NCBI GenBank assembly: GCA_018656065.1
Contig: JABHZY010000010.1
Coordinates: forward strand, 4,638-68,637
Origin: Candidatus Komeilibacteria bacterium
GTDB taxonomy: Bacteria; Patescibacteriota; Patescibacteriia; UBA1558; GWA2-36-10
Reading direction: 5' to 3'
DNA length: 64,000 bases
Made by a program: the position numbers and the translations under genes. Each line of letters opens with the position of its first letter. Position 1 is the first letter of the stretch. A model generated the notes under the pieces. That model was given only the letters and a program-made list of their open reading frames with translations. It was not told the origin of the DNA and did not search any database. This document shows, in pieces, positions 6,407-25,795 of the stretch.

Positions 6407-6832
6407 TTATTTATTTAATTTACTCAATATCTCCTGCTCAACTCGTTCCTGTTTTTTAGCTTCCTTATTATTTATTTCGTGATCATAGCCTAATAAATGT
6501 AATATCCCGTGAACTGTCAAAAGTTGTAATTCAGCTTTGTAGGTATTATTCTTTTCTTTCGCCTGGCGGCGAGCCTGGCTTAGGCAAATTAATACTTCTC
6601 CCAAAATATAATCATCATCTAAAACAAAAGATAAAACATCAGTTACTTTATTTTTCTGGCGATAAACCTGATTTAAGTTAGTTATTTCTTTAGCATCTAC
6701 CAAAGCTATGGAAATTTGTTTTTTTAATTTATATTTCTGTATAACAATTTTCTCTAACTCAGCTAACCAAGAAAAATCTATTGACAATCCTCTCTTATTT
6801 ATATTTAATAATTTATTCTTCGTCATCTTCAC
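6407..6832 (-). CDS. ybeY: rRNA maturation endoribonuclease YbeY
   Basis: HGILHLLGYDH zinc-binding motif. Confidence 0.9.
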   Translation of the reverse strand: MKMTKNKLLNINKRGLSIDFSWLAELEKIVIQKYKLKKQISIALVDAKEITNLNQVYRQKNKVTDVLSFVLDDDYILGEVLICLSQARRQAKEKNNTYKAELQLLTVHGILHLLGYDHEINNKEAKKQERVEQEILSKLNK

Positions 6833-7967
6833 CAGAATTATTATTTACCGCTGACCATTCAAAACTATTTAACATCATTTCAAAAATACTATCAAAATTA
6901 GCGCTACCCAAAGAACCTGTATCATAAGAAATGATGTGTATATAATCACCGTGTATACTTATTACTTTCCTACCATCTCTGGATCGCAACGCTCCTTCTC
7001 CAGCTAAGCTATAGTTATCAAAATTAGCTGATGACCCTAAAATATCTGCATTTTGAACTAAGGCTTCGCTAAGTGAAAGATTACCTGAATTATTTACACT
7101 TGATACAGAAAATGACTCGCCAGTTTCTGTATTTGGAATTACTAATATTTCTGCTAAATTACCACCATCTGCTTTAGCTATCCAAGTCTTTGGCCTAAGT
7201 AATAAATAACCATAAATACTATTACTAAATCGTATTACTAAACCAGAAGTTAGCAAGTCTTTACCTGGAAGTAATGGATTAAATAAATTTACTATTTCTT
7301 GACCATCTTTATAACCATCTTTATCAGTATCTTCTAAATTTGGATTTGTTGAAAAAACCAATTCTTCCTCATAGCTCAAACCATCATTATCAGAATCAAA
7401 AACTATTAAATCCTCTGGATTATCATTTGTATTTTCATTTATATTCTCGTTTTGATTAATATTTTCGTTAGTATTCTCATTAGTATTGGTGTTTTCATTT
7501 ATATTCTCGTTTTGATTAATATTTTCGTTAGTATTCTCATTAGTATTGGTGTTTTCGTTAGTATTTATATTTTCATTCTGATTAGTAGGCTCATTGGTGT
7601 TTTCATTTGTAACTACTGGTTGATCATTATTTAAAAATGGAACACTCTTATTAGCAAAAAATAAAACGCCTGCAATTACTACTATAATTAATAAAATTAA
7701 TCCAATAGCAATTAACAACACCTTTTTACCAGAACCACCACTAGGACCAGGGCTAGCTCCGCCAACATTTTTTTGTTGACTGGCTGCAACAAATTTACCA
7801 GGCATAGAATGAACATTGATACTTTCTTTTTTAACTCCCATTTCTGCCTTCAGTTCATCCATACTTGTTTTCTCACCAGCCAAATCTCCACTGGCCTTAG
7901 GCTTGATATCTTCTGAACCAGCTAAGTGATTCATTACTTCTTTTTTTGATTCTTGTTCATTTATCAT
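6813..7967 (-). CDS. membrane-anchored surface protein with an Asn/Glu/Thr-rich repeat tract and thrombospondin type-3-like Ca-binding repeats
   Basis: I moved the start to MINEQESKK (ATG at 7965-7967), so the gene no longer overlaps the upstream gene's stop at 7972. One TM helix. NENTNTNENTNENINQNENI repeats. DSDNDGLSYEEE / DTDKDGYKDGQE motifs. Confidence 0.65.
   Translation of the reverse strand: MINEQESKKEVMNHLAGSEDIKPKASGDLAGEKTSMDELKAEMGVKKESINVHSMPGKFVAASQQKNVGGASPGPSGGSGKKVLLIAIGLILLIIVVIAGVLFFANKSVPFLNNDQPVVTNENTNEPTNQNENINTNENTNTNENTNENINQNENINENTNTNENTNENINQNENINENTNDNPEDLIVFDSDNDGLSYEEELVFSTNPNLEDTDKDGYKDGQEIVNLFNPLLPGKDLLTSGLVIRFSNSIYGYLLLRPKTWIAKADGGNLAEILVIPNTETGESFSVSSVNNSGNLSLSEALVQNADILGSSANFDNYSLAGEGALRSRDGRKVISIHGDYIHIISYDTGSLGSANFDSIFEMMLNSFEWSAVNNNSGEDDEE
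7441..7560. repeat. 2 x 60-bp near-perfect tandem repeat inside the Asn-rich coding tract
   Basis: 7441-7500 and 7501-7560 are identical except at 2 positions. Confidence 0.95.
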
Positions 7968-7971
7968 AATT

Positions 7972-8901
7972 TTATATATTTTCGTTAGTATTTGATGAAC
8001 CATCCTCTTCGTCCTCTTCTCCATTGTCTGGTAATTTTCCATTACCTAATGGATTATAGCCATTAGACACCTCCATGCCGTCTTGATAAGTATCTCCATC
8101 GGTATCTGGATCATTTGGATCTGTCTGATATATAATTATTTCTTCATGATCGCTAAGGCCATCATTATCAGTATCACTAGACAATGGATCCGTATAATAT
8201 GTTTCTATTTCATCTTGATCAAAGACACCATCATTATCAGTGTCAGCCTCCATTGGATTAGTGCCGTACACCCTCTCCAATCCATTACTTAAACCATCAT
8301 AGTCGTCATCAAGATCGTCATCATTAGCAACTGGCTCATCATCATCGATTATATCTTCTTCATTAGTATTCTCATTATCATTAACTAAAACTTCTGTATT
8401 TATATTATCATCTACAGTACTACTAAAATCTTTATCTTTTAAGAAAAAATAATAAACTGCCCCACTTACTATAGCCAAAAGTGCAATCACTAAAACAGCT
8501 ATTATGATTTTCCTTATAGGACTAGATGCTCTATCATCAGTAACCATCATAGAACTAGCCGGCGGAATATTTGGTGTCTGGGCCATTGCTTTTGGCGCTA
8601 CTGGCTGAGGAGCCGGTGTTGCTGGCTGAGCACTCGCCTCTGGACTAGGCGCACTAGTTTGAGAAACCGGTTTAATTTTACCAGATTGAATAGCGCTAGG
8701 CTTATTTGGATCTACTGCCCCATGATTAGCAGGCGTTGGATCTACATCACCAAACATATCATCAATCTTAGCTGGCTGAGGAGTAGAAGCTGGTGTTGCT
8801 GGCTGAGTACTCGCCTCTGGACTAGGTGCACTAGTTGGAGGCGTAGGCACCGCAGGCTCTGGCGCCGTTTGATTATTGTCTTTTTTTAAATCATCAAACA
8901 T
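7972..8901 (-). CDS. Pro-rich membrane-anchored protein with thrombospondin type-3-like repeats
   Basis: Repeated APSPEAS(T/A)QPATPA, one TM helix, DTDNDGVFDQDE / DTDNDGLSDHEE / DTDGDTYQDGME motifs. Confidence 0.65.
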   Translation of the reverse strand: MFDDLKKDNNQTAPEPAVPTPPTSAPSPEASTQPATPASTPQPAKIDDMFGDVDPTPANHGAVDPNKPSAIQSGKIKPVSQTSAPSPEASAQPATPAPQPVAPKAMAQTPNIPPASSMMVTDDRASSPIRKIIIAVLVIALLAIVSGAVYYFFLKDKDFSSTVDDNINTEVLVNDNENTNEEDIIDDDEPVANDDDLDDDYDGLSNGLERVYGTNPMEADTDNDGVFDQDEIETYYTDPLSSDTDNDGLSDHEEIIIYQTDPNDPDTDGDTYQDGMEVSNGYNPLGNGKLPDNGEEDEEDGSSNTNENI

Positions 8902-8925
8902 ATTTAAAAGTTAATTTATAATTTA

Positions 8926-11900
8926 TTAATCACAAGATCCAACTGTACAAGAATTACTACAACATTGACCATTAATTGTACAACCGCCACCAGGACCTAT
9001 ACAAGGCAAAGTGCAATCCATGTGCCCATCTGGCCCACCATTTGGCATACTAACATCTGAACCACCAGCACCATCACAAATAGTAGAATTAATAACCGTC
9101 ATGGTTTCTACACGCCAATCAGTAGTACTATCTGTAAATAAACCACCTGTGTCTGCAGCAATTGCCTCACCTATATCCTCAAGAGTAACTCCACCATTTA
9201 TAAGTACTGGATTTATAAATACAGGATTATCTTCATCTAAATTACAAGCAGCTACAGCATCTATTAAAACATCAGCATCAGGTAATTCTTCAATGTAATT
9301 ATCATATGTATCCATTCCACTACCGCATGAAGCATGCTCATCACTAACAGGAATAACCACTCTATGATAATCTGGCAACCAAGCATAACTTTCGGCTATT
9401 CTTTTAATAGCGTAACCCCAATCCTCTAAAGATCCATTACTACTACAATCCTGATAGTTAATATCATCGCCAGATCTATAATTACCATATCCTCCACTAG
9501 TATCTACAAGAACACCTCCGTCTATTTCATTAGTAGCATTATCATAAAAACTCAAATATCGAACTTCTGGAAATTGTAATTCATCAGGATCTTCACTTAC
9601 ATCTACCAAATCAGTACAATTTGTATATAAAGCGTTAAAGACGCTCTCACTCTGACCTGATACAAAACCTCTGATATTGTCTGTTTGGGTGGCTGTTAAT
9701 TCCGCACTCACACTTCCATCACCTAAGACAAATATGCTTATTCTATAATTTATGTCCGCATTCTCTGGTAAATCTAACTCTTGAACTACACCATAGGTAG
9801 AATTACATAAATCAGTTGCTTGCGAACTCATACTACCAGACATATCAAATATATAGACAATATCTACATCTTTATTCACTACATAAGCTGGATCAAATCC
9901 ATTATCACAATCTTCATAAGCAGTAAATGCTCCACCTTCATCATTACATTCAAATTCTGTACAATCATACCGACTAGTAGCAAACCATGTTTCGCCAGCA
10001 TCGGTACAATCTGTTTCATTTCCAATAGCGAAATCACTACACTGCCAACTACTACAATTAACACTACACTCACCATCTATTTGTCCATCACCACAATAAC
10101 CGCCCTGATTTATACAATCACTACAAGCATATTGCCAACTCTCAGTAGCAAATTGAGAAAGACTAGATCCACGAGGCCATGGATAATATGATGTATCTTC
10201 TGGATCTCCCCAATCACAACCTTCGTAGTATTGTTGACTCTTTACGCCATCACCACAATAACCACCGGCCATGCCAGGAACTTGACTTATACAGTCTGCT
10301 GCACAAGTGTAAGTATCAATTGGATCAGAATCAACCGGCAAAGGTCTAGTAGGGAAATCTTCTCCATCACAAAGTTCACCATAAATTGTTTGAGCTTCAC
10401 CATCATTACAATAACCACCAGTAGTGCCAACACAATCTACATCACAAGTATACTGATTTGCTATACCACTAGCATCTGGTGCTGGAGGTAATGGATTTTG
10501 TGGTATTCCATCCCAAGGAGTACCCGGATCACACTCTTCGCCATAGTCAGAGAAAGCTACTCCATCTTGTATATCTCCATCACCACAATAACCATCTAAA
10601 GTAGCTGTACAAGCCTCATGGGAGCTACCATTAGTAGCATTATAAGTACCTACATCTCTACAGAGGTATTGATTATATTCATCAGAGAATAATGGCTGAG
10701 GAGTGGTATAAGCAGGTAATCCATTAACATCTAAACCATAATCACACATCTCTTGATCTTCGTATTGTTCTATACCATCGCCACAATATGTATTATCAAA
10801 CTCACAAGACAAAGTACAGCCATAACTAGGTAATGGCAATGGCCCAGTTAATACTGGTACTGGCCCTTCATAAGAAGCATAATCACATGCTTCAACCGGA
10901 TTCCAAACACCTCCTACTGCAATACAATGAGCGGTATTAATTACCTCCTCTTCATTAGGATCACAGTCAGAACAATATACACTACACTCTCCATTTACAA
11001 CTCCATTTCCACAAAGTCCGGGGTAAGGAACTCCTGCTGTACAGGTACGCTCACAAGAATTATTACATTGAATACTACCGCTTAATGTACAGTCCCAACC
11101 TGCTAGACCAGTTGGATTAGCACTAGCATCACATTGTTCCATTCCTTCTGACCAAATGCCGTCACCACAAAGAGCTGCTGGATAAATACCTGCACTATCA
11201 TCACACATTACTTGGCAACCAATACCACAAGACAAATCAGCTGGATTACCATCTACACAAGTATAGCCACTTGGCACTGGTAAGCCCGGTTCACAATTTT
11301 CATAATATGGTTGTAATGTAGCATCACCACAATAACCACCACATTGATTGGCTGTTAATACTGGATCAGGTTCATACCAAGTACACTCTATAAGAAGACC
11401 TGTATCTGTATCAATAGTCCCTGCTGAATAACAACCAACAGTTTGTTCGTTCCACCAAGCTTGCGCGCCTACCACTGGGTAAGCTGGATGAGACCCTGGA
11501 GGAGGAACAGAACAAGCAAAATTCCAAAATTCATTATCACACTCTTCTGTAGGAACCCAATTACCCCCAGCAGCATTACAATTTGCTTGAGCTACTGCTA
11601 TATTAGGATCATCGCATCCTGCACAATCCATTGAACAATGCTCTGGATCAACTACGCCATTGCCACAATACGGACTGGAATTTGCACCAGGGGCATCTAT
11701 TGATACGAAATCACAATGTCCTGCATTATTAATATTCAAATCCATAGTGACTGCTGATCCAGCTAAATTCCCGCCAAAAGTAATTCCAGGCGGTGGATTT
11801 ATACTATCATATTCAAAATTGGCACCTAAATAATAACTTTGTCCAATTCCTTCTATATTATACATATATACTAAAGAATCAGTTGGGCAAATAAAGTCTA

Positions 11901-14900
11901 AAGCCTCTTCATTCCAGCAAGTATCTGCATTATAATCGGGCAAGGTAGTGCCTTCGCCACAAGCATTAAACAAACCTATTGGATCTGACGGCGCAGACAT
12001 AGCAATAGTATTAGAGAATGCTCCTTGCCAAGAAGGCCAAGAACTATTAGTTAAACCATTTAAATAAGATCCTGCATTTAATGGCGGATAATAAGGAACA
12101 CAAGGCAAACCACTTGGACAATCCGCAGGTATTTCACAAGAAATCAGACTATTATTTTCACAAGCTTTATTAGCTTCGCCATAAGCCAATATAGCATTAT
12201 TTATATTTACTAAATCACTAAGACGCTTAGTATCACGACGTAATTTAAGCATTGGTGAATCACATGTATCTGAAAGCCAAGTTGCTGGTGCTGTACAATC
12301 TAATTCATCAGCTCCGCTAAAATCATCACAATACCATGGACAATCAAAATCACTACTACAACTTCTAGCAACTTGACCATTACAGAAATTTTCAGTACCT
12401 CCTGTTAAATTAGTATTTAATTTAAAATTACTTAACATTTGACTATACATATTAAGTGTAGTAGGTCTAGCACCTATATTGTGAGCAATAATATATATAT
12501 TAGTATACATATGTGTTTCTGCATTAGCAGCTGCTATATAAATTGTACTACCAACCTGCAGAGCTTCGTAGCCATCTACCTGTACTAAACTTCCTACTTG
12601 GTCTGAATTTGGTGCATATTCATTATACCAATCCCTTACAGATAAATGATCATCATTTCTCATTACTCTAAAAGCAATAATATCAACTACCGCATCATCT
12701 GCAGATGTATTAGCTATTAACAGTGGGTGATCAGATATTGGCGGCCAGAAAGTAGGACTACAAGCGCTGTTTTCTGCTACTATCCTATATCTGTAAGTAT
12801 GGTCTAAAGCAACTGTATTGTCAGTATATACATAAAGACCATGTTCATTAGGATGGGCACGAGCAGGCACATCAGCTAACGGTTGCCAACCAGCTGGATC
12901 ACCAACTTGTAATCTCCTTATTTGAAAACTTGTTGGATCACCACAGCCTGTTGTACAATCTGGTTGGTTCCAACTAAATTCTAAAGTATTTACTCCATCG
13001 TAAGTATAATTTAAGCTATTTGGACGATTGGCTAAACAAAGTGGCATCGGCTGCCCTTTAGCCTCTTCTGTTCTAAATAAAAATGTAATTTTATCAACTA
13101 AAGAATCTTTATCTTCTTCCTTTATTTCATTATAATAAGCCAAACTACCTAAATAAGGGTGCTGTTCCCCGCTATCAGCATTAGAATAATGGATAGTGGT
13201 TATAAATTCTTCTAAAACATTTGGATCTGGGGATGGCGTAGTATGTGGAACATCAATATATGGAAGCTCTGCCGGAGACGAAGCGTCATAATTTTGACAA
13301 TAGTAAGTAGAAAAATTCCAACCCTCACCGTCATTCCATAGATTACCTAAACTTGGCCATGGTACTTCACAAGTATTTACTTGTAAAGATGCGGAAGTAG
13401 TTAAAACGTTAGTTGCGTCAGAAACCAAGGAAGCTTCTACGCTCAAATTAGTACTACCATTACTATTAGCTGTGCCATATATATTAGCATTAATTAAATT
13501 CTCTGGATGAACCACAGCATCATCAGATGACGCCCAAGCATAAGTCATTGGCGAAGTAGCTAATAAATTACCACGTATATCATAAACAAGGGCTCTGTAT
13601 TGATGTTGGTTACCAGCTGTGCCTGCAGCATCTCCTTCGCAGCCTGCAGAATCTATACAAGTGAAAAGCTCTGCGCCTTCATCATAATCAATTTCTACAC
13701 TATGAATAGTACAAGCTTCAGTACCGGTATTAAACTGAATACTTAGAGAATTACCACCCCCCGGAGGCTGCCCAAACCATAAAGGTGGTATGATTGTATC
13801 TGTAGTAACAATAGTTCCATCTTCACTAGTTATTAAATCTCTATCATCAATTAAAAATCTATGAGTTTTATCGTGATTCAAAAGTTCATCTGGTTGAAAA
13901 TACACTCGAGTAATACCACCTCCCTCAACAAATTGAAGATCGCCACTTATCTCACACCATGAACCCATAGGCAAGCAATCTTCAAATAATTTTACTTGAG
14001 TTCTAAAACTATCTCGGTGTAGTCTACCACCAGATGTATCAAACTCAAGCATTGGCACTGTATTATAACAATAGGTATCTCCAGCTACAAACTCTGGTGG
14101 ATAATGATTTATCAAAATAGACTCATCAGCTACTGAAGCTCCAATTGAAACTTCTAAATCTCCATAGTCTGTAAAAGTAACTCCTTGATCTACTACATCT
14201 ACTTCTATTTCAGTAGCTTGTCCATCTAACACTGTGGCGTATGTAGTAAATATAGGATCTTCAAAAGTAGCATTGTTAAAAGTTCCTAAATCTAATACAT
14301 CATCATTCCAAATATAACTACAAGTGTCACAATAAATTGGCATATCGCCACAACCTGGCATAGAAGTAATTTGTGTCACTACATTATAATCAGTTCCTTG
14401 ACTAGCTCCGACTGACACAAAATTAGGATCCACAGCAACCGCATCAATACGACATTCATTAGTACCGACAGTAAATTGATAAACAGTATCTACACCTAAA
14501 GTGTCTAAAGCTACACTTGTTATACCAGCTCTAAAAGTAATTTCATATGTTTCACCTAAAGTCAGACCTGGATCATTAAGGATCAAAGTTCTCAGGCCAC
14601 CAGTCAATGTATGTCCAGCAGTAATAATAGCTCCATCTGACATCCTGCGAATTTGATATTGACCTCCTAATAAAGTTTCCTCTATTTGTTCATCAAACCT
14701 AGCTCCTATTTCTGCATTAGTACAAGCATTATCTGCCAAACAATCTGGCCAATATTCTAAAAGATTTAAATCACCAGTTGGTGGAATAACTATTGTAATG
14801 CCAGTATCAATAATGAATAGACCACTATCATCTGGTACAGCTACTCCATCATCATTAGTTAAAGTAGCTATGACATCTGTTTGATCGAAGTCAGTAGTCA

Positions 14901-17900
14901 TATCATCTGTTACTTCTATGGTTTGTATATTTGCAGCACTAGTAATACTAGCAATAGTATTGTCTGCTAAGGTCCAAGCATAGGAACAGAACTCACAATA
15001 GACTGGCATATCACCACAACTTGGAGAATGATAAGTGGCGTCAACATTGTAATTCCAAAATCCTCCGGCAGTAGTTAAACGATAAGAGCCTGGACTGACA
15101 TCGGCTCCGTCAGCATAACATTCATCATGGTTTGTACCAAAGTTCCAGGTATATGGATTCTGCAAAGCATGAAGATCAGCACTATTAAATGTATTTGGAA
15201 TAGTTACTGTAAATGTTTCTGCAAAAGGTAAAACGCCAGTATCAAGAATTAATCTTCTTGGATTGGCTAAAGATACAGTAAGGCCTGTTAGATGTTCTCC
15301 TCCTCCACTATCTCTAATGTGAAAATCTGCAAAAACCGCATCTACATTAGCCTGAACTTGATTTTCATCGAAATAAATACTAACTATTGGAGTATTACAA
15401 GACTCAGAACAGTTTGGTTCATAATCATCTACTGTCATGTAATCTGTACTACCTGGAGGTGTTGTACCACTAACATCAACTGTCAAAGGTGTAGTACCTG
15501 AACCAGTGCCATAAGTAAGAGCCGTACCATCAATAGTTAAATTTATATCTATAGGTAATATAGTATTAACCAGTGGTGTAGCATAGACTGTTTGTGCGCC
15601 AAGACCACCTGAATCTATAGTAGCATAAGTAACATCACTACTACTCCAATTCCAAATACAACCTTCACATTGAATAGCTTGCTCACCACAAATTCCTCCA
15701 TCAGCTACAGCATAGCCTTTATAACGAATATCATTAAAAGAATGTGTAGTATAATTATCTGGTAAAATATTTGCTCCAGTAATCTGACAATTAACATCGC
15801 CCACACCGAATGTCCAATCATAGTCACCTACCAAAGAATAACCATCCGTATTTACAAGAGAATTATCAAGATTTTCATTAATAATTACTTTATAATCTTC
15901 ATTTGGTAACAAAGGATCGCCCACATGATCAATTATAATATCTACTCTATAGGCGTCACCTGGTATTGGATAAGGGACACTTAAATTATCTGTATAACTA
16001 TGGCCTGTATCCCAAGCACTACAAGTAGCGTCAAGACATCTATAAATAGCAAAGTCATCTATATTAAGAGGTGTTTGTAAATTAGTATTAAAATCTACAT
16101 AAACTGCCACATTGATACATGAATCATCACAAGTTGGATTATGCCCCTCTACTCTAAGTACGGGAGCTAGTATTACTGGCTCAGTTTGACCAGTTATTGC
16201 GAAATCATTATTAGTAGCTTCTAAAGTGACATGATTTGGCGCAGCAGTATTTTCAGTAGTTGCAGGACCACCTTCTAATCTAGTATATCCTCTATTAACA
16301 TCCATATTTGCAACTGGACCTATGATACTAGCAAAATCTCCTGGCGGAACATAGGGAGGAATTTCAACTGGCTGAGTCAAATTCCATTGCCAATCATAGC
16401 TACCACCACAAACATTACAATTATCTGCTAAAGGAGAGGCATTAAAATTCTTTTCTCTGCCTGGATACATATTGGCTGATGTAGGCTGTGGAGTAACTGC
16501 AACAGTGGTAACTTCACAAAGCAAACCACTATCTCTAGTTTTAAAAGTCCATTCATCAGCTGCTGTAGGAGTCCACTCATCCGCACCAATTTCTGCACCA
16601 AAAGTGCCTAATAATACTTCATACCAAGTGTCTGGCAATAAATCTCCATCTGGAGTATCTGGATTTAAATCAGCATCTGGATTAAATACAAACCCTTCTC
16701 TATCACTATTATGATTTATAATACTGATTATACCCGGCAAAGGACCACCTATATAAGCTGTACAAAATTCATCATCACATTGACGTAATATTATATTAGT
16801 ATCATTAAAATCAGCATCCTCTACATCACGTGTAAATAAAGCTGAAATATTTGAATCCACAAAAGCATCTAGAGACGCTGGCCATTCTGGAAAACCTGTT
16901 TCTGGATTAGTCCACTCATGCTGATCTGGCCATGGGCTTGGAGATTGTAAGCCAGTAGCACAACTATAGTTATAAATTAATTCAAAAGGAGCAGCTTCCG
17001 TACTAACATCCCAAGAATATGAACATGAATTTAAAGTAATCCCACAACTAGCTGCGGCAGTACAATAATCTCCAAATTCTCCTTCACAACATACATTGCC
17101 AGCACCACACTGAACATCTCCAGTACAGGCGCCCACATTAAATGGCAAACCATTACTATCATTACCATCTGCATCTGTAACTACCACTGGACCAGTACTA
17201 GCTCCAATCGGTATTCCAACATCAAGTACTTGATTAGCATTCCAAGCTGAATAACTTGCATTAACACCATTATAAAAATTTACAGTACCAGGTACAGAGC
17301 CTAGATTTTCACCAAAAATTCTAACGTTATTATTAATTGGACCATTATCTGGATTAATAGCACAAATCTGTGGCCCTACCAAAGCATTTGTAACAGTGAA
17401 ATTATCAAAATTATTACTATTAGCTAGATCACCATTTCTTTCTACTCTAATATAGTATGAATCCCCTATTGTCAGAGTATCAGGCACTCTCACAATGATG
17501 TGATCATCAAACCAATAATCTCCACACATAGCTGGAAAATCAAATAAACCTAATTCTTCATCAGCAAGTACGGCAGGATCTGGATCAAAGAATAATCTAC
17601 CTTCATTATCTCCAAAATTTGATCCCATAATAGTAACGTAAGAATCCATTGGACCATTATCTGGAGACAATTCTATAATAACTGGATTTCCTCCTGTGAC
17701 AGACAAAGCTGAAAAAGGAAATGGATTACTAATTATTGGAGTGGCGTCATTTGTACGCATGGTAACACCAATATCACCAACAATATTTGGTACCTGAGCA
17801 TCAGCATCATTTGGTGGAACTACATTAGTGATATGACTATATACTGTATCAAAATAGGCTGTATCAGTAATTGAAAAATTTACACCTTCTATATTAATAA

Positions 17901-19473
17901 CATCCCCATGGGAACCATCGGGTACATCCAGAGCACAAATACCCGGACGACTAACTGCATTTTTAGTAAAACCTAAGAATGGATCACTGGTTTCTCCCCC
18001 ATAGATTGAAGCCTGAATGACTTCTATACTTAATAATTCATCGGCCGCCCCCATAGGTACAGCCATAATAATATAATCATCTGTCCATGTGTCTACACAG
18101 GCTCCATTAATACTAGATGGTAAAGTTCCTGGAATGTCTCCGGCAGTATCTCTAAAAATAACACTACCTCTTTCATTGACGTTAGGATTGCCTAAATCAG
18201 CGTCATCGCCAAAGTCATAACCAAAAATAGTGACTAAAGTTTCGCCTTGTCCATCTTCTGGAGATATAGATTGAATCACTGGAATATCCGCACTAGGGAC
18301 AACTACTGAGCTTTCACAAACGCTATATGGCCTACAAGAATCACTATCACAACAACCAGAATCACAATCTGCATCAGCTGCACAGGTAATATCAAAATAA
18401 TCCCAATCTGCATCACCACCTACATCCACTATTATGTTACTAGCTAAAGCATTAGTTGGCACTGACATATTAATTTGTAAATCAGTCCAAGAACTAACAA
18501 TTAATTCAGCTGGATTAGTTAGGACAGCTTCTGCTCCAGCTACCCAGCCGTCCATAGCTAAACTATCCTCTGTATTTGTAAAACCTTTACCTAAAATTTG
18601 TATATTTCTTGGTAAATCGCCAGTTGGACCGGCAGTAGCCTCATCTGGCACTAAACAATCTACAGTAACACCAGCTGTACCTGCTGTAACTGTAAAACTA
18701 AAGTGAGGTGCTTCAACACTTTCTACACCAGCTGGCAACACATCATTATATAAAATTACTTCATAGAATCCTTCTGCTAAAGTATCTGGGATTTTAACTT
18801 TTACCTTTCTATCTTCCCACATTGGTGAACCATCACATTCTACTATTTCAGCAACTACGCCATTTATCTCCACTCTACCAACTCCTGGTGAGTCATCGCC
18901 ATCTGTATCAAATTGCCAACCACGAATAGTTAAGTTACTACCTACCGGTCCGCTATTTCTATTTAAAGAACAAACTATAGGTTCATCAGGATTTCCTGGT
19001 GCAGAACAAGTAGTAGGTATTGTAGGACAAGTTCCGCAAGTATTACCATTACAACAATCACCTGGTGGGCAATGTATATCTAGCGTACACTCAGGCCCTG
19101 AACCACCTGGGTCTGTAACATCGTATAATTTACTCAGTATAAATCTAGAAATAGCATAGGCAGATAATATAATGACTAATCCAATAACTGCACTAGCAAT
19201 AAGCAATTTAGCCTTCTCTACCTTCTCAGCATTACCTTTAGAGGTCATCCATAAATAACCAGCGTATAACAGTAAAAGAGTCGCTAATATTCCCAAAAAG
19301 CCGAGAAATATATTAATAATTCCTCCAATAGTGTCTCGTATAGATCGCGTACCTAGGACAACTCCTGCATCCGCCAAATCATTAACACCAAACTCTTCTT
19401 GGGCAAAAGCCTTATTAGCAAAGGTTATTGCCAAAATAAGGTTGCTTATTAATAGTGAAAATACTTTTTTCAT
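8926..19473 (-). CDS. giant (3515 aa) multidomain surface adhesin with an N-terminal T4SS-pilin-like two-helix anchor
   Basis: Single uninterrupted ORF. N-terminal signal peptide plus IFLGFLGILATLLLLYAGYLWMTSKGNAEKVEKAK...SAYAISRFIL (TrbC/VirB2-like pilin module, DNA about 19135-19395). Several IPT/TIG-like units (GPVGSNLTIRGWQF, GETLVTIFGYDFG, GPMDSYVTIMGSNFG, GPINNNVRIFGENLG). Many Ig-like modules. An FN3-like unit. A long run of Cys-rich YCGDG/CGNGV..E.CD repeats (DNA about 9900-11700). VWA domain with MIDAS DIVYIFDMSGSMS (DNA about 9300-9880). Cys-knot-like C-terminus. Confidence 0.9.
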   Translation of the reverse strand: MKKVFSLLISNLILAITFANKAFAQEEFGVNDLADAGVVLGTRSIRDTIGGIINIFLGFLGILATLLLLYAGYLWMTSKGNAEKVEKAKLLIASAVIGLVIILSAYAISRFILSKLYDVTDPGGSGPECTLDIHCPPGDCCNGNTCGTCPTIPTTCSAPGNPDEPIVCSLNRNSGPVGSNLTIRGWQFDTDGDDSPGVGRVEINGVVAEIVECDGSPMWEDRKVKVKIPDTLAEGFYEVILYNDVLPAGVESVEAPHFSFTVTAGTAGVTVDCLVPDEATAGPTGDLPRNIQILGKGFTNTEDSLAMDGWVAGAEAVLTNPAELIVSSWTDLQINMSVPTNALASNIIVDVGGDADWDYFDITCAADADCDSGCCDSDSCRPYSVCESSVVVPSADIPVIQSISPEDGQGETLVTIFGYDFGDDADLGNPNVNERGSVIFRDTAGDIPGTLPSSINGACVDTWTDDYIIMAVPMGAADELLSIEVIQASIYGGETSDPFLGFTKNAVSRPGICALDVPDGSHGDVINIEGVNFSITDTAYFDTVYSHITNVVPPNDADAQVPNIVGDIGVTMRTNDATPIISNPFPFSALSVTGGNPVIIELSPDNGPMDSYVTIMGSNFGDNEGRLFFDPDPAVLADEELGLFDFPAMCGDYWFDDHIIVRVPDTLTIGDSYYIRVERNGDLANSNNFDNFTVTNALVGPQICAINPDNGPINNNVRIFGENLGSVPGTVNFYNGVNASYSAWNANQVLDVGIPIGASTGPVVVTDADGNDSNGLPFNVGACTGDVQCGAGNVCCEGEFGDYCTAAASCGITLNSCSYSWDVSTEAAPFELIYNYSCATGLQSPSPWPDQHEWTNPETGFPEWPASLDAFVDSNISALFTRDVEDADFNDTNIILRQCDDEFCTAYIGGPLPGIISIINHNSDREGFVFNPDADLNPDTPDGDLLPDTWYEVLLGTFGAEIGADEWTPTAADEWTFKTRDSGLLCEVTTVAVTPQPTSANMYPGREKNFNASPLADNCNVCGGSYDWQWNLTQPVEIPPYVPPGDFASIIGPVANMDVNRGYTRLEGGPATTENTAAPNHVTLEATNNDFAITGQTEPVILAPVLRVEGHNPTCDDSCINVAVYVDFNTNLQTPLNIDDFAIYRCLDATCSAWDTGHSYTDNLSVPYPIPGDAYRVDIIIDHVGDPLLPNEDYKVIINENLDNSLVNTDGYSLVGDYDWTFGVGDVNCQITGANILPDNYTTHSFNDIRYKGYAVADGGICGEQAIQCEGCIWNWSSSDVTYATIDSGGLGAQTVYATPLVNTILPIDINLTIDGTALTYGTGSGTTPLTVDVSGTTPPGSTDYMTVDDYEPNCSESCNTPIVSIYFDENQVQANVDAVFADFHIRDSGGGEHLTGLTVSLANPRRLILDTGVLPFAETFTVTIPNTFNSADLHALQNPYTWNFGTNHDECYADGADVSPGSYRLTTAGGFWNYNVDATYHSPSCGDMPVYCEFCSYAWTLADNTIASITSAANIQTIEVTDDMTTDFDQTDVIATLTNDDGVAVPDDSGLFIIDTGITIVIPPTGDLNLLEYWPDCLADNACTNAEIGARFDEQIEETLLGGQYQIRRMSDGAIITAGHTLTGGLRTLILNDPGLTLGETYEITFRAGITSVALDTLGVDTVYQFTVGTNECRIDAVAVDPNFVSVGASQGTDYNVVTQITSMPGCGDMPIYCDTCSYIWNDDVLDLGTFNNATFEDPIFTTYATVLDGQATEIEVDVVDQGVTFTDYGDLEVSIGASVADESILINHYPPEFVAGDTYCYNTVPMLEFDTSGGRLHRDSFRTQVKLFEDCLPMGSWCEISGDLQFVEGGGITRVYFQPDELLNHDKTHRFLIDDRDLITSEDGTIVTTDTIIPPLWFGQPPGGGNSLSIQFNTGTEACTIHSVEIDYDEGAELFTCIDSAGCEGDAAGTAGNQHQYRALVYDIRGNLLATSPMTYAWASSDDAVVHPENLINANIYGTANSNGSTNLSVEASLVSDATNVLTTSASLQVNTCEVPWPSLGNLWNDGEGWNFSTYYCQNYDASSPAELPYIDVPHTTPSPDPNVLEEFITTIHYSNADSGEQHPYLGSLAYYNEIKEEDKDSLVDKITFLFRTEEAKGQPMPLCLANRPNSLNYTYDGVNTLEFSWNQPDCTTGCGDPTSFQIRRLQVGDPAGWQPLADVPARAHPNEHGLYVYTDNTVALDHTYRYRIVAENSACSPTFWPPISDHPLLIANTSADDAVVDIIAFRVMRNDDHLSVRDWYNEYAPNSDQVGSLVQVDGYEALQVGSTIYIAAANAETHMYTNIYIIAHNIGARPTTLNMYSQMLSNFKLNTNLTGGTENFCNGQVARSCSSDFDCPWYCDDFSGADELDCTAPATWLSDTCDSPMLKLRRDTKRLSDLVNINNAILAYGEANKACENNSLISCEIPADCPSGLPCVPYYPPLNAGSYLNGLTNSSWPSWQGAFSNTIAMSAPSDPIGLFNACGEGTTLPDYNADTCWNEEALDFICPTDSLVYMYNIEGIGQSYYLGANFEYDSINPPPGITFGGNLAGSAVTMDLNINNAGHCDFVSIDAPGANSSPYCGNGVVDPEHCSMDCAGCDDPNIAVAQANCNAAGGNWVPTEECDNEFWNFACSVPPPGSHPAYPVVGAQAWWNEQTVGCYSAGTIDTDTGLLIECTWYEPDPVLTANQCGGYCGDATLQPYYENCEPGLPVPSGYTCVDGNPADLSCGIGCQVMCDDSAGIYPAALCGDGIWSEGMEQCDASANPTGLAGWDCTLSGSIQCNNSCERTCTAGVPYPGLCGNGVVNGECSVYCSDCDPNEEEVINTAHCIAVGGVWNPVEACDYASYEGPVPVLTGPLPLPSYGCTLSCEFDNTYCGDGIEQYEDQEMCDYGLDVNGLPAYTTPQPLFSDEYNQYLCRDVGTYNATNGSSHEACTATLDGYCGDGDIQDGVAFSDYGEECDPGTPWDGIPQNPLPPAPDASGIANQYTCDVDCVGTTGGYCNDGEAQTIYGELCDGEDFPTRPLPVDSDPIDTYTCAADCISQVPGMAGGYCGDGVKSQQYYEGCDWGDPEDTSYYPWPRGSSLSQFATESWQYACSDCINQGGYCGDGQIDGECSVNCSSWQCSDFAIGNETDCTDAGETWFATSRYDCTEFECNDEGGAFTAYEDCDNGFDPAYVVNKDVDIVYIFDMSGSMSSQATDLCNSTYGVVQELDLPENADINYRISIFVLGDGSVSAELTATQTDNIRGFVSGQSESVFNALYTNCTDLVDVSEDPDELQFPEVRYLSFYDNATNEIDGGVLVDTSGGYGNYRSGDDINYQDCSSNGSLEDWGYAIKRIAESYAWLPDYHRVVIPVSDEHASCGSGMDTYDNYIEELPDADVLIDAVAACNLDEDNPVFINPVLINGGVTLEDIGEAIAADTGGLFTDSTTDWRVETMTVINSTICDGAGGSDVSMPNGGPDGHMDCTLPCIGPGGGCTINGQCCSNSCTVGSCD

Positions 19474-19517
19474 TTTTATATCTTATTTATTGAAAATAAA
19501 TTTTATAATTAGATTTA

Positions 19518-21203
19518 CTATGACTCCTCTCCTACACAGTCTGTTCCTGGACAATTAAGTCCTTCGGCAGGATCATTATTAGTACAAACACAAGAAGCAT
19601 CTCCTGCAGCACAAGCACAAGGAAACCAACAATTTTGTCTGGAATCTTTAATGCCAGATCTTATTGTAGGAGTATAATAACTAGAAGGATCAAGCTTATC
19701 ATGCCTAATACTAATAGTATCTCCACCTAACAAACGCATCCAATAATTAACTGGCACAACTCCATCTAAATCGATATTACTAGAATTGACTGAACTACTT
19801 AATAATTCTTTATCGAAAGTAACTTCTATTGGATCTGTTAGTGAAATATCATTTGGATCTTGCATACTAGAAATAGTTGGTGGAGTAAGATCAATTTCAT
19901 CGGTAGTAGCAAAAGTCCAAGTGTAATCTCCTCCTGCAGTGTCATCATCATCGCCGTCTAATATATTGTCAGCCATATCAGCTATCATATCTCCAGCTAC
20001 AATTGTGCCCGTTCCATCTACTATAGCAACAAAATCATCGGGACTAGTAATATTACTAGCTGGCAAACAAAATACATCTCCACCACAAGAATTCACACCA
20101 CATAAATTATCGGTAATTAATTCTACAGTCCTATATTGATTAGATATTTTATATTCTCCCTGGACTATATATGGCCCAGGAACGATTGGCAGAACACTGG
20201 TATCATCATCGTTATTTGTAACTCTAATATTTAAAAACCCAGTACTTGTATCACCCGTAGCTAAAGCTGGATTTATTGATTCTGAAAAATTAATTTTCAC
20301 GACACTATTTCTAGGATTATCTGTAGAACCTGTTACAGGTCTAACTGATACTACCTTAGGTGGTGTAAAATCAAAATCTGTACCTGTAGTAAAAACCCAA
20401 TGGTAAGAATTAGAATGTGGAAAAGCCACTGAACCATTTTGAGTTTCCAAATCTCCTAGCTCCATACGATAACGAACATCAGATGTACCACTGCCTAAAT
20501 CAGGTGGATTTAATTGAAAAGTTCTAAAACCAGTATTAGGATCTGTACTATAGCTAACTAATAAATTAGCACCTGTAATAGGTAAAGCATTGCCCTGCTC
20601 CCATAGATCTACCATGCCAGTACGAGCCGTACAATCAACCCCTCCACAAGCTCCTGAATTAGTAACAATCATATCCACATCCATTGGCTCCTTGAAAGTC
20701 AAATAAATATTAGTATTTCTAGGTATATCAGTAGCATAACGAATCGGATAATGACTATCTAAAGCACCTGCCCCCAAGCCTACTCCCGCACTAAAACCAC
20801 CGCCTGAGCTGCCACCGCCAGTTCCAAAAGCACCATCATAACCTTCACGTAATATAAATCTAGCTATAGCGTATGATGAAAGCACAATCGCCAAACCAAT
20901 AACGCCGTTTATTAAGATTTTCTTGGCTTTATCTATTTTTTCAGCATTACCTTGAGAGGTCATCCAAATAAATCCACCATATAGCATGGTTAGCGTAGCC
21001 AGAATCCCCAAAAAGCCGAGAAATATATTAACTATACCGCCGATTATATCTTTAAGATCTCTAGTGCCGAGATTGACTCCCGCTTCAGCCAAATCATTAG
21101 TACCAAAGACATCTGCTGCTTGAGCTAAAACCATCTCAGGCAACAAAAAAACAACTGTCAAAAATATAATAAACATAACAGTTATCTTCTTATTAATTAG
21201 CAT
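19518..21203 (-). CDS. 561-aa surface protein; its N-terminal pilin-like anchor is paralogous to that of the giant adhesin
   Basis: N-terminus IFLGFLGILATLTMLYGGFIWMTSQGNAEKIDKAK...SSYAIARFIL aligns at roughly two-thirds identity with the giant protein's N-terminus. Ig-like (SbsA-type) domains follow, then a Cys-rich C-terminus. Confidence 0.85.
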   Translation of the reverse strand: MLINKKITVMFIIFLTVVFLLPEMVLAQAADVFGTNDLAEAGVNLGTRDLKDIIGGIVNIFLGFLGILATLTMLYGGFIWMTSQGNAEKIDKAKKILINGVIGLAIVLSSYAIARFILREGYDGAFGTGGGSSGGGFSAGVGLGAGALDSHYPIRYATDIPRNTNIYLTFKEPMDVDMIVTNSGACGGVDCTARTGMVDLWEQGNALPITGANLLVSYSTDPNTGFRTFQLNPPDLGSGTSDVRYRMELGDLETQNGSVAFPHSNSYHWVFTTGTDFDFTPPKVVSVRPVTGSTDNPRNSVVKINFSESINPALATGDTSTGFLNIRVTNNDDDTSVLPIVPGPYIVQGEYKISNQYRTVELITDNLCGVNSCGGDVFCLPASNITSPDDFVAIVDGTGTIVAGDMIADMADNILDGDDDDTAGGDYTWTFATTDEIDLTPPTISSMQDPNDISLTDPIEVTFDKELLSSSVNSSNIDLDGVVPVNYWMRLLGGDTISIRHDKLDPSSYYTPTIRSGIKDSRQNCWFPCACAAGDASCVCTNNDPAEGLNCPGTDCVGEES

Positions 21204-23398: not shown

Positions 23399-24049
23399 TT
23401 ACTGACTAATATTTTCATAAATGGGCACATTAAAAGTATTGACTCTATTTATAGGCCAACCCCTAACCCATACCCTACCTATAACATATTCCTGATGCAC
23501 AGGACCAATTTGACGAGAATCTAAACTATTAGATCTATTATCTCCCATCATAAAATATTCATTCTCATTTAAAATAATAGCCTCATGTTTATCAGAGGAA
23601 AAATTCTCTACATAAGATTCTTCTAAAATCTCTCCATTAATATAAACCCTGCCATCATCTACAGAAACCTCTTCTCCTGGCAATCCTATTATCCTTTTTA
23701 TAAAATAGGATCTAGTATCTTTTGGGTTTTTAAAAATTATTACCTCACCTCTTTGTTTTTCATTAAATCTATATGATATCTCATCTATAATTAAATATTC
23801 ATTTTGATAAAAATTTGGTTCCATTGATGCTCCTTCCACATAAAAAGGTTGCACTAAAAATAATCTAATTGGCAAAATAATAGCTAAAGAAATTAAAACT
23901 ACTTTTACTATTTCAAAAACTAATATACCAAATTTCTTCATCCAAGATAAAATTAAAGAATCTTCATCATCTTCTGAGAAATTACTCATGTCCATATCAG
24001 CATTTTCAGGCACTGAATTATCTTGTTCTAGGTTTTTATTTTCTTCCAT
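23399..24049 (-). CDS. lepB: signal peptidase I
   Basis: GASMEP Ser box, KRIIGLPGE, GDNRSNSLDSR. Confidence 0.9.
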   Translation of the reverse strand: MEENKNLEQDNSVPENADMDMSNFSEDDEDSLILSWMKKFGILVFEIVKVVLISLAIILPIRLFLVQPFYVEGASMEPNFYQNEYLIIDEISYRFNEKQRGEVIIFKNPKDTRSYFIKRIIGLPGEEVSVDDGRVYINGEILEESYVENFSSDKHEAIILNENEYFMMGDNRSNSLDSRQIGPVHQEYVIGRVWVRGWPINRVNTFNVPIYENISQ

Positions 24050-24141
24050 AAAAGATATAAAATTATATAATTGATACGATTATTATACATAATACAAAAA
24101 TTAAAATCAACCACATAAAAGCCTATAAATTATGGGCTAAA

Positions 24142-25791
24142 ATGGACTTTAGAGAGTTGACTGATGCTTATTTTATTAGTATAATTGATATACTTCAGGA
24201 ATGTAATAAAATGGATTTTAAGAAAAGAAAAATAAACCTTCTAGAAGAAGATTTACATAATAATTTTGATAACCAGCCACAGCCAAGCAAGCCAAAGCTA
24301 AATTTCAAAAGAAAACACAAAGCAGACTCAAATGAGCCGACCAGAGAGCATTCTGGTAAACGTCGAGGAAAGAAAAAGCTTCCCTTGTTTTTTATAATAT
24401 TAATCATCGCCTTTTTAGGCATGGCCAACTTACTAGCCGCTGACAATGACGGTTTTTTATCTGGTGTAAAAAATTCTTATTTAGTCAGACAGATTACTCA
24501 TATTATATCTAGTAAAGAACAATATCTTGCTGGCGAACAAGAAGATAGAATTAATTTTGTATTACTGGGTATGGGTGGCGCTGGACATAATGGACCATAT
24601 TTAACAGATACAATCATGATAGCTAGCTTCAAACCATCAAGTAAGGAGGCTACTATATTCTCTTTACCTCGAGATATGATTGTGCCAATTGATAGTAATA
24701 ATTATAGAAAAATAAATTCTGTATATACCATTGGCCAAAATAATGGTGTTGGCGGTGGTGAATTAATGAAAAAAATACTAACTAACACTTTTAACATACC
24801 TGTCCATTATTTTGCTGCTGTGGATTTTAATGGTTTTATAGAAATGATAGATGCCATAGATGGTGTAGAAATAAATGTAGATACAGGATTTGTAGACAAT
24901 CAATTTCCAACTTATGATGAAAAATGGCAGAGCGTTTCTTTTGACGCTGGTAAACAAACCATGGACGGCTTAACAGCACTTCGCTATTCTCGCTCTCGTC
25001 ATGGTAATAATGGTGAAGGATCTGATTTTGCCCGCATTAAAAGACAACAAAAAGTAATATTGGCTGCTAAAGAAAAACTTACTTCTTTCAATACTCTAAT
25101 AAACCCTTCTAAAATTACTAGCCTATTTTCATTATTTACCAAATATACTTCTACTGACCTTGAACCATGGGAGGCAGTTAAACTAGTACACATGGGCAAA
25201 GAATTAAATACCCAAAATATAGTCACCCAATCAATTGATGATCGACCTGGCGGATATCTCAAAGCTGGTATCGCTGAAGATGGCGCTTATATATTACAAC
25301 CTGTCACTGGTAACTATAGTCAAATAAATTTATTAATAAAAAATACATTTGATCTTCAACAGGCTAGCCAAGAAAAAGCTAAAATAGTAATCCAAAATGG
25401 CACTATAGTACCTGGCCTAGCTCTGGAGGCGGTTAATTATTTAGATCAAATAGGGTATAATATAATAAGGTATGGTAATGCTACTACTCAGGATAAGATT
25501 AGTACCATAATATATGACTATACTAATAATAATCCCAAAACTAAAGAATCACTAGAAAATGTTTTTTCAATAAAATCAAAAGACAATATTCCATTAGATT
25601 ATGATAGTTCTGTTGTAGCCTCAAACTGGGGAATAAGAGATGATAATGGAGAACTAGCCCAAATAGATTTTTTAATTATTTTGGGCCAAGACCAAATAAT
25701 AGATGAAGGAATAGAAATAATAACTACTATTGATCCTTCCTTACTACTAAGTAGTTCCACAACAACTAGTACAGAGGAAGAAATAGAATAA
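24142..25791 (+). CDS. LytR-CpsA-Psr (LCP) family cell-envelope transferase
   Basis: TM anchor, then LLGMGGAGHNGPYLTDTIMIASF and RYSRSRHG...DFARIKRQQ. The start is uncertain; an alternative ATG is at 24211. Confidence 0.8.
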   Translation: MDFRELTDAYFISIIDILQECNKMDFKKRKINLLEEDLHNNFDNQPQPSKPKLNFKRKHKADSNEPTREHSGKRRGKKKLPLFFIILIIAFLGMANLLAADNDGFLSGVKNSYLVRQITHIISSKEQYLAGEQEDRINFVLLGMGGAGHNGPYLTDTIMIASFKPSSKEATIFSLPRDMIVPIDSNNYRKINSVYTIGQNNGVGGGELMKKILTNTFNIPVHYFAAVDFNGFIEMIDAIDGVEINVDTGFVDNQFPTYDEKWQSVSFDAGKQTMDGLTALRYSRSRHGNNGEGSDFARIKRQQKVILAAKEKLTSFNTLINPSKITSLFSLFTKYTSTDLEPWEAVKLVHMGKELNTQNIVTQSIDDRPGGYLKAGIAEDGAYILQPVTGNYSQINLLIKNTFDLQQASQEKAKIVIQNGTIVPGLALEAVNYLDQIGYNIIRYGNATTQDKISTIIYDYTNNNPKTKESLENVFSIKSKDNIPLDYDSSVVASNWGIRDDNGELAQIDFLIILGQDQIIDEGIEIITTIDPSLLLSSSTTTSTEEEIE

Positions 25792-25795
25792 TAAT

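Follow-up and report, generated by a model that had tools for sequence, protein, structure and literature searches.

VirB2-like pilin modules as N-terminal units of two large predicted surface proteins in a conserved operon of Patescibacteria

Introduction

A large part of the uncultured diversity of bacteria belongs to the Patescibacteria, whose cultured representatives live attached to host cells. VirB4 of type IV secretion systems (T4SS) was found in 2,417 of 3,035 Patescibacteria assemblies and VirB2-like pilins, with the family PF18895 among them, in 1,948 (Quinonero-Coronel et al. 2025, PMC12102498). The free PF18895 pilins are 100-170 amino acids (aa) long, end just past helix 2 and are often arrayed close to virB4; no adhesin such as PrgB was detected in Patescibacteria by the authors of that survey (PMC12102498). 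In Southlakia epibionticum, the one genetic model, the T4SS and the pilin array are essential (Wang et al. 2023, PMC10633639). In the supplementary tables of that work, SEML1_0014-0016, 0018 and 0019 are assigned to PF18895, 0017-0019 are listed as small and essential, and those of the six pilin genes SEML1_0014-0019 for which sizes are listed have 381-417 nucleotides (nt) (PMC10633639). Here we describe a four-gene cluster of a Candidatus Komeilibacteria bacterium in which a PF18895 module is the N-terminal unit of two much larger proteins, one of 3515 aa (hereinafter, the giant) and one of 561 aa. The cluster occupies positions 6813-21203 on the minus strand of a 64,000-nt stretch of contig JABHZY010000010.1 (GCA_018656065.1), referred to below as the window; coordinates are those of the window unless a relative's locus is named.

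The free PF18895 pilins, e.g., SEML1_0014-0019, belong to the same hidden Markov model family as the fused modules and share their layout, in which a leader is followed by a pair of hydrophobic helices with a short charged loop; among the free pilins found, the closest reach 53-60% identity to the fused module. Unlike them, the fused units continue for 440 or 3400 more residues and are encoded in a housekeeping operon apart from T4SS genes. The similarity to the TrbC/VirB2/TraA conjugative pilins (PF04956) is weak: the hairpin architecture and the processing by signal peptidase are in common, but the two proteins reach only 13.7-18.1 bits, under the PF04956 gathering threshold of 27.9 bits, and a search of the module profile against PDB sequences returned no solved pilin and only chance matches to P-type ATPases. 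The pilin-like protein of Mycoplasma integrative and conjugative elements (ICE; NF045849, Mbov_0395/MMCAP2_0565) is another relative. The isolated module of the giant passes the NF045849 cut-off of 40 bits with 43.3 bits, while the 561-aa protein stays below it with 33.5 bits; the family itself describes 80-residue proteins of mobile elements.

A parallel in design can be seen in the modular type IV pilins, such as PilB of Streptococcus sanguinis with its VWA module, where an N-terminal polymerising pilin unit bears an adhesive module. These pilins belong to another superfamily, characterised by one helix at the N-terminus, a class III leader and processing by a prepilin peptidase, and their modules are far smaller. 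Unlike in that system, a scan of the window and of the relatives' loci found zero type IV prepilin leaders. Fibrillar adhesins of monoderm bacteria, including PrgB of the enterococcal T4SS, resemble the giant in its predicted exposed part: a long stalk of beta-sandwich repeats (Ig-like in these adhesins), an adhesive head, acidity and calcium binding. Their anchor is of the LPXTG/sortase type, whereas the giant is reversed, with the anchor at the N-terminus and the presumed head at the C-terminus, and its anchor is a pilin hairpin instead of a sortase signal or SLH domain.

In our judgement, the chances are about even that the cluster, an old, vertically inherited operon of one Patescibacteria lineage, builds a calcium-dependent fibre or adhesin complex at the cell surface. 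The pilin hairpin would both anchor the large proteins in the membrane and make specific contacts.

Pilin Module of the Two Large Proteins

A first-pass annotation of the window had described four consecutive genes for envelope-type proteins here, two of them with N-termini about two-thirds identical to each other and similar to T4SS pilins. The four open reading frames (ORFs) are indeed present on the minus strand. The N-termini of the giant (gene at 8926-19473; end-to-end orthologues P0156, P0157 and P0163) and of the 561-aa protein (gene at 19518-21203) share 64 of 97 residues (66%, E 7e-46). Both also pass the gathering threshold of Pfam PF18895 T4SS_pilin (26.6 bits), the giant with 32.6 bits at full length and, over the first 480 aa, with 36.0 bits; the 561-aa protein scores 36.8 bits.

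The order of elements in both modules is an AxA-type signal peptide, about 25 exposed residues, a hydrophobic helix, a loop and a second hydrophobic helix. In the giant, the predicted signal peptide (aa 1-24, 19402-19473, minus strand) has a hydrophobic stretch at aa 4-22, aligns with the leaders of free pilins and ends in AFA before Q; A24 is invariant among orthologues. The module follows at aa 25-120 (19114-19401, minus strand), delimited by PF18895, NF045849 and the topology segments. According to the topology prediction, it consists of a transmembrane (TM) segment at about aa 47-77, the loop TSKGNAEKVEKAK and a second TM segment at about aa 84-116. In the 561-aa protein, the putative signal peptide (aa 1-27, 21123-21203, minus strand) ends in VLA before Q, the cleavage site having been read from the sequence, and the module was assigned to aa 28-125 (20829-21122, minus strand) by Pfam, pairwise and free-pilin alignments and hydrophobicity.

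Alignment with stand-alone pilins, proposed in the first-pass annotation for those of the same genome, indicated that the fused modules are collinear with 22 free pilins over their full length, from the leader through helix 2. The free pilins end about 10 residues past helix 2, which is exactly where the extensions start. With 561 and 3515 aa, the fused proteins are well outside the size of the small stand-alone family members; judged by sequence, their N-terminal unit is nevertheless a complete member of the T4SS-pilin family. If the basic loop is taken as cytoplasmic, the extension would be located outside the cell.

When comparing the giant with five orthologues, differences between its regions can be noted. 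The module has the highest identity (67-83%), followed by the core module described below (54-65%), the Cys-rich repeats (47-61%), the VWA-like region (45-59%), the TIG region (42-57%), the stalk (29-49%) and the FN3 unit (24-38%). Among the closer relatives, modules of the giant type are 71-83% identical to each other and those of the short, 561-aa type 80-89%; to those of L004, the most distant locus compared, the values are 54-61% and 62-63%, respectively. Giant-type and short-type modules are 56-68% identical; for free pilins, the identity to either fused type is 44-69%. Thus, judged by sequence, the fused hairpins are still ordinary pilins, and their two types split long ago. The hairpin was called an anchor in the first-pass annotation. 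It is predicted to be a membrane hairpin, as was supposed; however, this word may understate its role, since about 100 of 3515 residues that are the best conserved in the protein would not be expected of a passive anchor, and specific contacts are likely. Correspondingly, the hairpin is not a passive anchor in the reading that we favour.

The identity values bear on another explanation as well, according to which the two proteins are modular VirB2-type pilins. T4SS machinery would extract their hairpins and build them into the pilus of free PF18895 pilins, at its tip or as rare subunits, and the pilus would bear its own adhesin. It would be the VirB2 counterpart of the Gram-positive modular type IV pilins and the "missing adhesin" of the T4SS. 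We regard this as somewhat unlikely, even though the fused modules are complete, are as close to free pilins as to each other, and form the most conserved region of the giant.

Distribution and Gene Synteny in Relatives

An exhaustive search with a 125-residue module query (E ≤ 1e-3) yielded 29,602 cluster representatives. Together with the Southlakia array, this agrees with the remark in the first-pass annotation that the family is abundant as small stand-alone proteins in the Candidate Phyla Radiation. Architecture classes were determined for the best 150 of the 29,602: 35 are free pilins, 66 are chains of concatenated hairpins, and 49 have an N-terminal module with an extension, which exceeds 1000 aa in 28 of the 49 and is up to 6060 aa long. 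A pilin hairpin anchoring a giant protein, considered unusual in the first-pass annotation, is therefore not unusual in this lineage: one third of the nearest relatives are extended, and the fusion belongs to a conserved syntenic operon in the relatives examined.

In the 66 concatenated chains, which include P0158, P0160, P0161 and P0166, 2-12 tandem pilin hairpins stand behind a single signal peptide. Their linkers mostly have 8-29 residues, with one of 40. The published survey describes separate pilin genes in arrays, without single-chain concatenated hairpins (PMC12102498).

Full-length homologues of the 561-aa protein occur across Patescibacteria with 30-74% identity and lengths of 490-970 aa, and nearly all of them have both PF18895 and Big_5. 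At least one (P0137) is named ICE pilin-like conjugal transfer protein by NCBI; "pilin" and "Ig-like domain-containing protein" are names that database pipelines already give to some of the members. Orthologues aligning with the giant from end to end are P0156 (3426 aa, 52% identity), P0157 (45%) and P0163 (40%), and remoter giants have the module, the core and the TIG region in common with it.

For the locus survey, one genome per species was used. A relative of the 561-aa protein was present in 179 of these genomes, and the gene order was read in the best 80 loci. Four homologue neighbourhoods gave the order lepB-hisS-(rpsU)-yqeY-[pilin+Big_5]-[pilin+giant], and in L004 the giant is followed by a TSP3 protein, a 438-aa protein and ybeY. 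The fuller order, lepB-hisS-yqeY-[pilin+Big_5]-[giant]-[TSP3]-[TSP3]-ybeY-dgkA-ftsA, is kept almost throughout the best 80 loci. A second, larger pilin-fused gene follows the first in 64 of the 67 loci with sufficient downstream sequence. The relatives whose class was checkable belong to GTDB class ABY1. The operon is a vertically inherited core operon, neither a mobile element nor a recent fusion. Horizontal transfer was considered and rejected in view of the conserved housekeeping synteny. The G+C content of the cluster is slightly raised (0.36-0.41 vs. 0.31-0.36), and this fits the composition of the Gly/Asp/Ala/Pro-rich proteins that it encodes.

In nearly all relatives, the operon has this fixed site, with lepB-hisS-yqeY on one side and ybeY-dgkA-ftsA-ftsZ on the other. 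Such a site could also be expected of a structural envelope component: a calcium-stabilised layer similar to a surface layer (S-layer), a spacer or a wall-spanning scaffold serving cell integrity or division. We find this quite improbable, and the domain content that bears on it is discussed below.

In the surveyed loci, 24 giants are complete, with a median length of 2764 aa. Their proximal parts are constant, the core being present in 20 of the 24, and their distal end is variable. Besides the window type, the distal ends seen by eye comprise canonical VWA (e.g., VFVSDRSSSM...FMTDG), lectin-like and other modules; this was judged on the giants in L008-L087, P0180, P0189, P0191-P0210, P0242, P0247 and P0297. 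Strong variation from species to species is what would be expected of ligand-binding heads and not of lattice proteins, which speaks against a structural layer.

In some distant relatives (L005/L066 of Uhrbacteria, L064, L040, L061 and L074), the giant is split into two ORFs, the first containing pilin, TIG and Ig-like parts and the second, leaderless one, the core and the repeats. A small free pilin gene lies between the two fused genes in L005/L066 and L064. The splits could be real, or they could result from a frameshift or a sequencing error. Those in L005/L066, L040, L061 and L074 would suit the explanation that the 10.5-kb frame of the window is an artefact of assembly or annotation, either chimeric or a fused pseudogene. 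This is scarcely credible, given the collinear end-to-end orthologues of 2.3-3.5 thousand residues in many independent assemblies and the conserved start, signal peptide and C-terminus. The first-pass annotation had proposed to confirm the integrity of the ORF by long reads; uninterrupted orthologues of this length in dozens of assemblies answer that concern short of the reads themselves. A frame of 10.5 kb at 36-41% G+C also excludes a chance origin.

Many records containing the operon bear the title "uncultured Gammaproteobacteria", "Methylomirabilis", "Chlamydiae" or "Planctomycetota" (L012, L015, L019, L023, L024, L037, L059, L060, L062 and others). With their Patescibacteria synteny, they are probably mislabelled or contaminated bins.

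Relation to Type IV Secretion

No T4SS genes (virB3, virB4, virB6 and the like) were found within 10 kb of the operon in the relatives' loci or among the large ORFs of the window, a T4SS ATPase included, which fits a system working by itself. Co-assembly with a T4SS pilus is possible, although gene linkage does not indicate it.

The proposal of modular VirB2-type pilins finds several points of support here. An operon-carrying relative with an array of four free pilin genes encodes one pilin that is 53% identical to the module of the giant. Four operon carriers of class ABY1 (L009, L013, L038 and L045) are VirB4-positive (Table S1, PMC12102498), the PF18895 pilins of Southlakia are essential and encoded in its T4SS cluster (PMC10633639), and the T4SS survey found no PrgB-type adhesin in Patescibacteria. 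The concatenated hairpins indicate that the fold tolerates a C-terminal continuation outside the membrane. However, the operon never adjoins T4SS genes in the loci read, and four positives of four are weak evidence, since about 80% of Patescibacteria assemblies have VirB4. The family is without a solved pilus structure, and the module profile has no match among solved relatives. A 3400-residue ectodomain is sterically doubtful both for the passage through the wall and for helical packing, the tip excepted. Moreover, some TrbC/VirB2 pilins are cyclised head to tail, and such pilins could not bear a C-terminal fusion.

A broader version of the same idea treats the hairpin as a covalently extendable VirB2-like block in a large branch of Patescibacteria. 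Free pilins and hairpins fused to giant adhesins, to Ig-like proteins or to one another would assemble jointly, forming a single T4SS-dependent filament with a host-binding head. We hold this to be unlikely.

The array of four free PF18895 pilin genes, encoding proteins of 211, 106, 116 and 131 aa, is located at 8919-10813 of L006 (GCA_018819405.1). It adjoins a gene of a solute-binding protein and polysaccharide genes and lies away from T4SS genes.

Ectodomain of the Giant Protein

The giant has a mass of 377 kDa and an isoelectric point of 4.05. Outside the module, it contains 500 acidic and 93 basic residues, with a net charge of about -407. The first-pass annotation had listed IPT/TIG, Ig-like and FN3-like units in this part, and all three were recovered. 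About six IPT/TIG units with short Cys-rich linkers between them occupy aa 165-800 (17074-18981, minus strand). TIG (PF01833) passes the gathering threshold with 36.5 and 58.8 bits, the PDB-profile matches of the region are domain D of CGTase and an IPT/TIG protein, and the unit starts were located by motif. The Ig-like stalk at aa 801-2030 (13384-17073, minus strand) was delimited by Pfam and motif. Big_5 (PF13205) passes the gathering threshold with 49 bits. Its domains, at aa 1361-1447 and 1571-1668, lie within a set of three two-domain repeats, each closing in CxxCxYxW (aa 1269, 1493 and 1715). An FN3-like unit is located at about aa 2151-2240 (12754-13023, minus strand). FN3 has no Pfam match in the giant itself; the orthologue profile matches FN3 domains of titin (E 1e-4) and myomesin, with E values of 1e-4 to 1e-2.

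Big_5 is the SbsA-type Ig-like domain of S-layer proteins. Its presence would suit the structural envelope component considered above, as would the extreme acidity of the giant together with its calcium-binding TSP3 partners. In contrast, adhesins typically have a VWA/MIDAS (metal ion-dependent adhesion site) head and Cys-rich repeats, there is one giant per operon, and signals of very high expression were not seen, the promoter scan being uninformative.

The module that we call the core (aa 2256-2560, 11794-12708, minus strand) was delimited by orthologue identity and stand-alone homologues; no other extracellular part of the giant is conserved as well. It has no Pfam, PDB or significant Foldseek match, and the pLDDT (predicted local distance difference test) of its structure model is 53. 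Homologues of the core also exist on their own, in secreted proteins about 400 aa long (P0301-P0312). Two of their loci (L088 8001-9191 and L089 7611-8900) have the context htrA-pfkB-fpg-[core]-...-yceG-rplJ-rplL. The closeness to the wall gene yceG is a further point for a structural envelope role; beyond it, these neighbourhoods gave no functional lead. A short stretch of the core resembles the helix and the "YP" motif of GspG pseudopilins. A GspG-like pseudopilin head (PF08334) was tried for the second half of the core: Pfam T2SSG matched only 3 of 14 members, with E 0.07 at best, an hhalign comparison with GspG sequences gave P 0.002 and a probability of 14% over 31 columns, and Foldseek found nothing. 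With this marginal support, the assignment was not adopted.

The Cys-rich CG[DN]G repeats at aa 2600-3140 (10054-11676, minus strand) were located by motif positions. The first-pass annotation counted more than 10 CGDG/CGNG copies; we count about 9-10, namely 8-9 by motif search and a YCGDA copy noted by eye at aa 2713. DUF4215 / TIGR02232 (Myxococcus-type) was rejected for these repeats; the likeness was noticed by eye, and Pfam and NCBIfam gave no match at E ≤ 1.

A VWA domain with an intact MIDAS was also part of the first-pass annotation. The fold of the model and the invariant DxSxS agree with a VWA domain, while sequence profiles (Pfam, NCBIfam and PDB profile) give no VWA match and the structure model is of low confidence. 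The VWA-like domain at about aa 3200-3470 (9064-9876, minus strand) contains DMSGS (DxSxS) at aa 3210-3214, a conserved T and the later conserved SDE at aa 3377-3379, and DxSxS is invariant in six orthologues. The AlphaFold (AF2) model of the region, built from six input sequences, has a predicted template modelling score (pTM) of 0.60 and a mean pLDDT of 52. In a Foldseek search against PDB, nearly all of its top 40 matches are VWA domains, with E values from 4e-4, probabilities of 0.9-1.0 and TM-scores of 0.3-0.5; they include the integrin beta I-like domain, PTMP1, BatB and vWF A1. We assign a VWA domain to this region with moderate confidence. In the low-confidence model, the conserved T and SDE may be the downstream MIDAS ligands.

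The protein ends in a six-Cys tail read from the sequence, CIGPGGGCTINGQCCSNSCTVGSC (aa 3487-3515, 8929-9015, minus strand), with the spacing C-x6-C-x5-CC-x3-C-x4-C and a model pLDDT below 50. The tail is present in P0156 and P0157 and absent from P0162, P0163 and P0165.

The 561-aa Protein and the Two TSP3 Membrane Proteins

Behind its module, the 561-aa protein has a Big_5-type Ig-like region at about aa 150-525 (19629-20756, minus strand), supported by two stretches matched in Pfam. Big_5 passes the gathering threshold with 68.8 bits, the best stretch being aa 440-524, and the C-terminus is Cys-rich.

The two remaining genes had been described as coding for TM-anchored proteins with calcium-binding repeats of the thrombospondin type 3 (TSP3), which agrees with our results. 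The 309-aa protein (gene at 7972-8901, minus strand) has a single strong hydrophobic segment, a predicted TM helix at aa 124-156. With 51.3 bits, it is well above the TSP3_bac (PF18884) cut-off of 25 bits, and its repeats are located at about aa 195-290 (8032-8319). The 409-aa protein (gene at 6813-8042, minus strand) likewise has a single strong hydrophobic segment, predicted as TM at aa 101-138, followed by an Asn/Glu-rich spacer, a TSP3-like region at about aa 211-261 and a C-terminal domain. Its TSP3_bac score of 22.8 bits is just below the cut-off, yet this region and the TSP3 region of the 309-aa protein share 52% identity over 52 aa. Both have orthologues in L004, with 40% full-length identity for the 309-aa protein and 38% identity of the 409-aa protein to L004_438.

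At 7425-7556, the gene of the 409-aa protein contains 2.2 copies of a 60-bp repeat unit (97% matches) encoding the spacer just outside the TM helix. The ATG listed for this ORF overlaps the end of the gene of the 309-aa protein by 71 nt (7972-8042). The true start may therefore be an in-frame Met further downstream.

Proposed Mode of Action

Under the reading as a calcium-dependent adhesin complex, Sec would export both large proteins, and signal peptidase I would cut after AFA24 in the giant and after VLA27 in the 561-aa protein. The two-helix pilin hairpin would remain in the cytoplasmic membrane, with its lysine-rich loop in the cytoplasm and the C-terminus outside; thereby, the 3400 (or 440) extracellular residues would begin where a free pilin would stop. 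The giant would form a highly acidic stalk of roughly 20+ beta-sandwich units (IPT/TIG, Big_5-type and FN3) bearing the core module, the Cys-rich repeats and a distal VWA/MIDAS head, whose ligand would be located on another cell or surface. As obligate partners, the giant would have its 561-aa paralogue and both TSP3 membrane proteins. The hairpin is likely to pack against other hairpins, be it those of the paralogue, of free pilins or of the T4SS machinery.

Several observations weigh against this model. The conserved housekeeping context and the near-universal presence in the clade could mean a structural role in the envelope, and the strong conservation of the hairpin equally fits its incorporation into a pilus. 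The VWA end of the window type occurs in only 4 of the 24 complete giants; hence, ligand binding by VWA is no constant of the family. Searches of overlapping 480-aa segments against Pfam and NCBIfam matched nothing in aa 1726-3515, the last 1400 residues included, and the structure models of the VWA-like region and of the core are both of low confidence (pLDDT 52-53).

Genomic Setting

The four genes are tightly packed, with gaps of 18-44 nt where they do not overlap. On the high-coordinate side, they are flanked on the same strand by lepB (signal peptidase S26), hisS and yqeY, and on the opposite side, also on the same strand, by ybeY, a diacylglycerol-kinase-like gene, ftsA and ftsZ. The remaining part of the window also encodes core functions, e.g., ATP synthase, pheST, gyrB and metG, and the closest matches are from Candidatus Komeilibacteria and other Patescibacteria. 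A tRNA scan of the window returned zero genes, and no further pilin modules were found in it beyond the two fused copies. A promoter and terminator scan gave a result on par with shuffled sequence.

Nearly all long ORFs of the window (1-64000) are located on the minus strand. The GC skew is negative in every 2-kb bin except 24001-26000, the site of two plus-strand genes, and the cumulative skew curve has no turning point. The one-sided skew and the co-oriented genes place the window inside a single replichore.

Conclusions

A literature search, with subscription journals mostly outside its coverage, found no paper on PF18895/VirB2-like modules fused to large proteins. It seems, then, that giant surface proteins starting with a VirB2-like pilin and encoded in a conserved operon have not been described before. 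The finding questions the reading of every PF18895 protein as a pilus subunit, as the family also holds membrane-anchored giants and concatenated hairpins. The fixed position between yqeY and ybeY and the conserved module make the operon easy to spot in metagenomes, and the variable distal heads could mark host or substrate specificity.

If incorporation into a pilus were to apply, a T4SS filament of this kind would supply the adhesin reported missing from the Patescibacteria T4SS. No earlier example would exist of a conjugative-type pilus that has modular adhesins built into it in a bacterium lacking an outer membrane. As regards the adhesin complex that we favour, the predicted VWA/MIDAS head and Ig-like stalk make an attachment organelle for an epibiotic lifestyle, suggested in the first-pass annotation, plausible. 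By joining a pilin fold covalently to a 377-kDa adhesin-like protein, the operon offers a testable candidate for the structure by which contact is made in lineages of which no member has been cultured.

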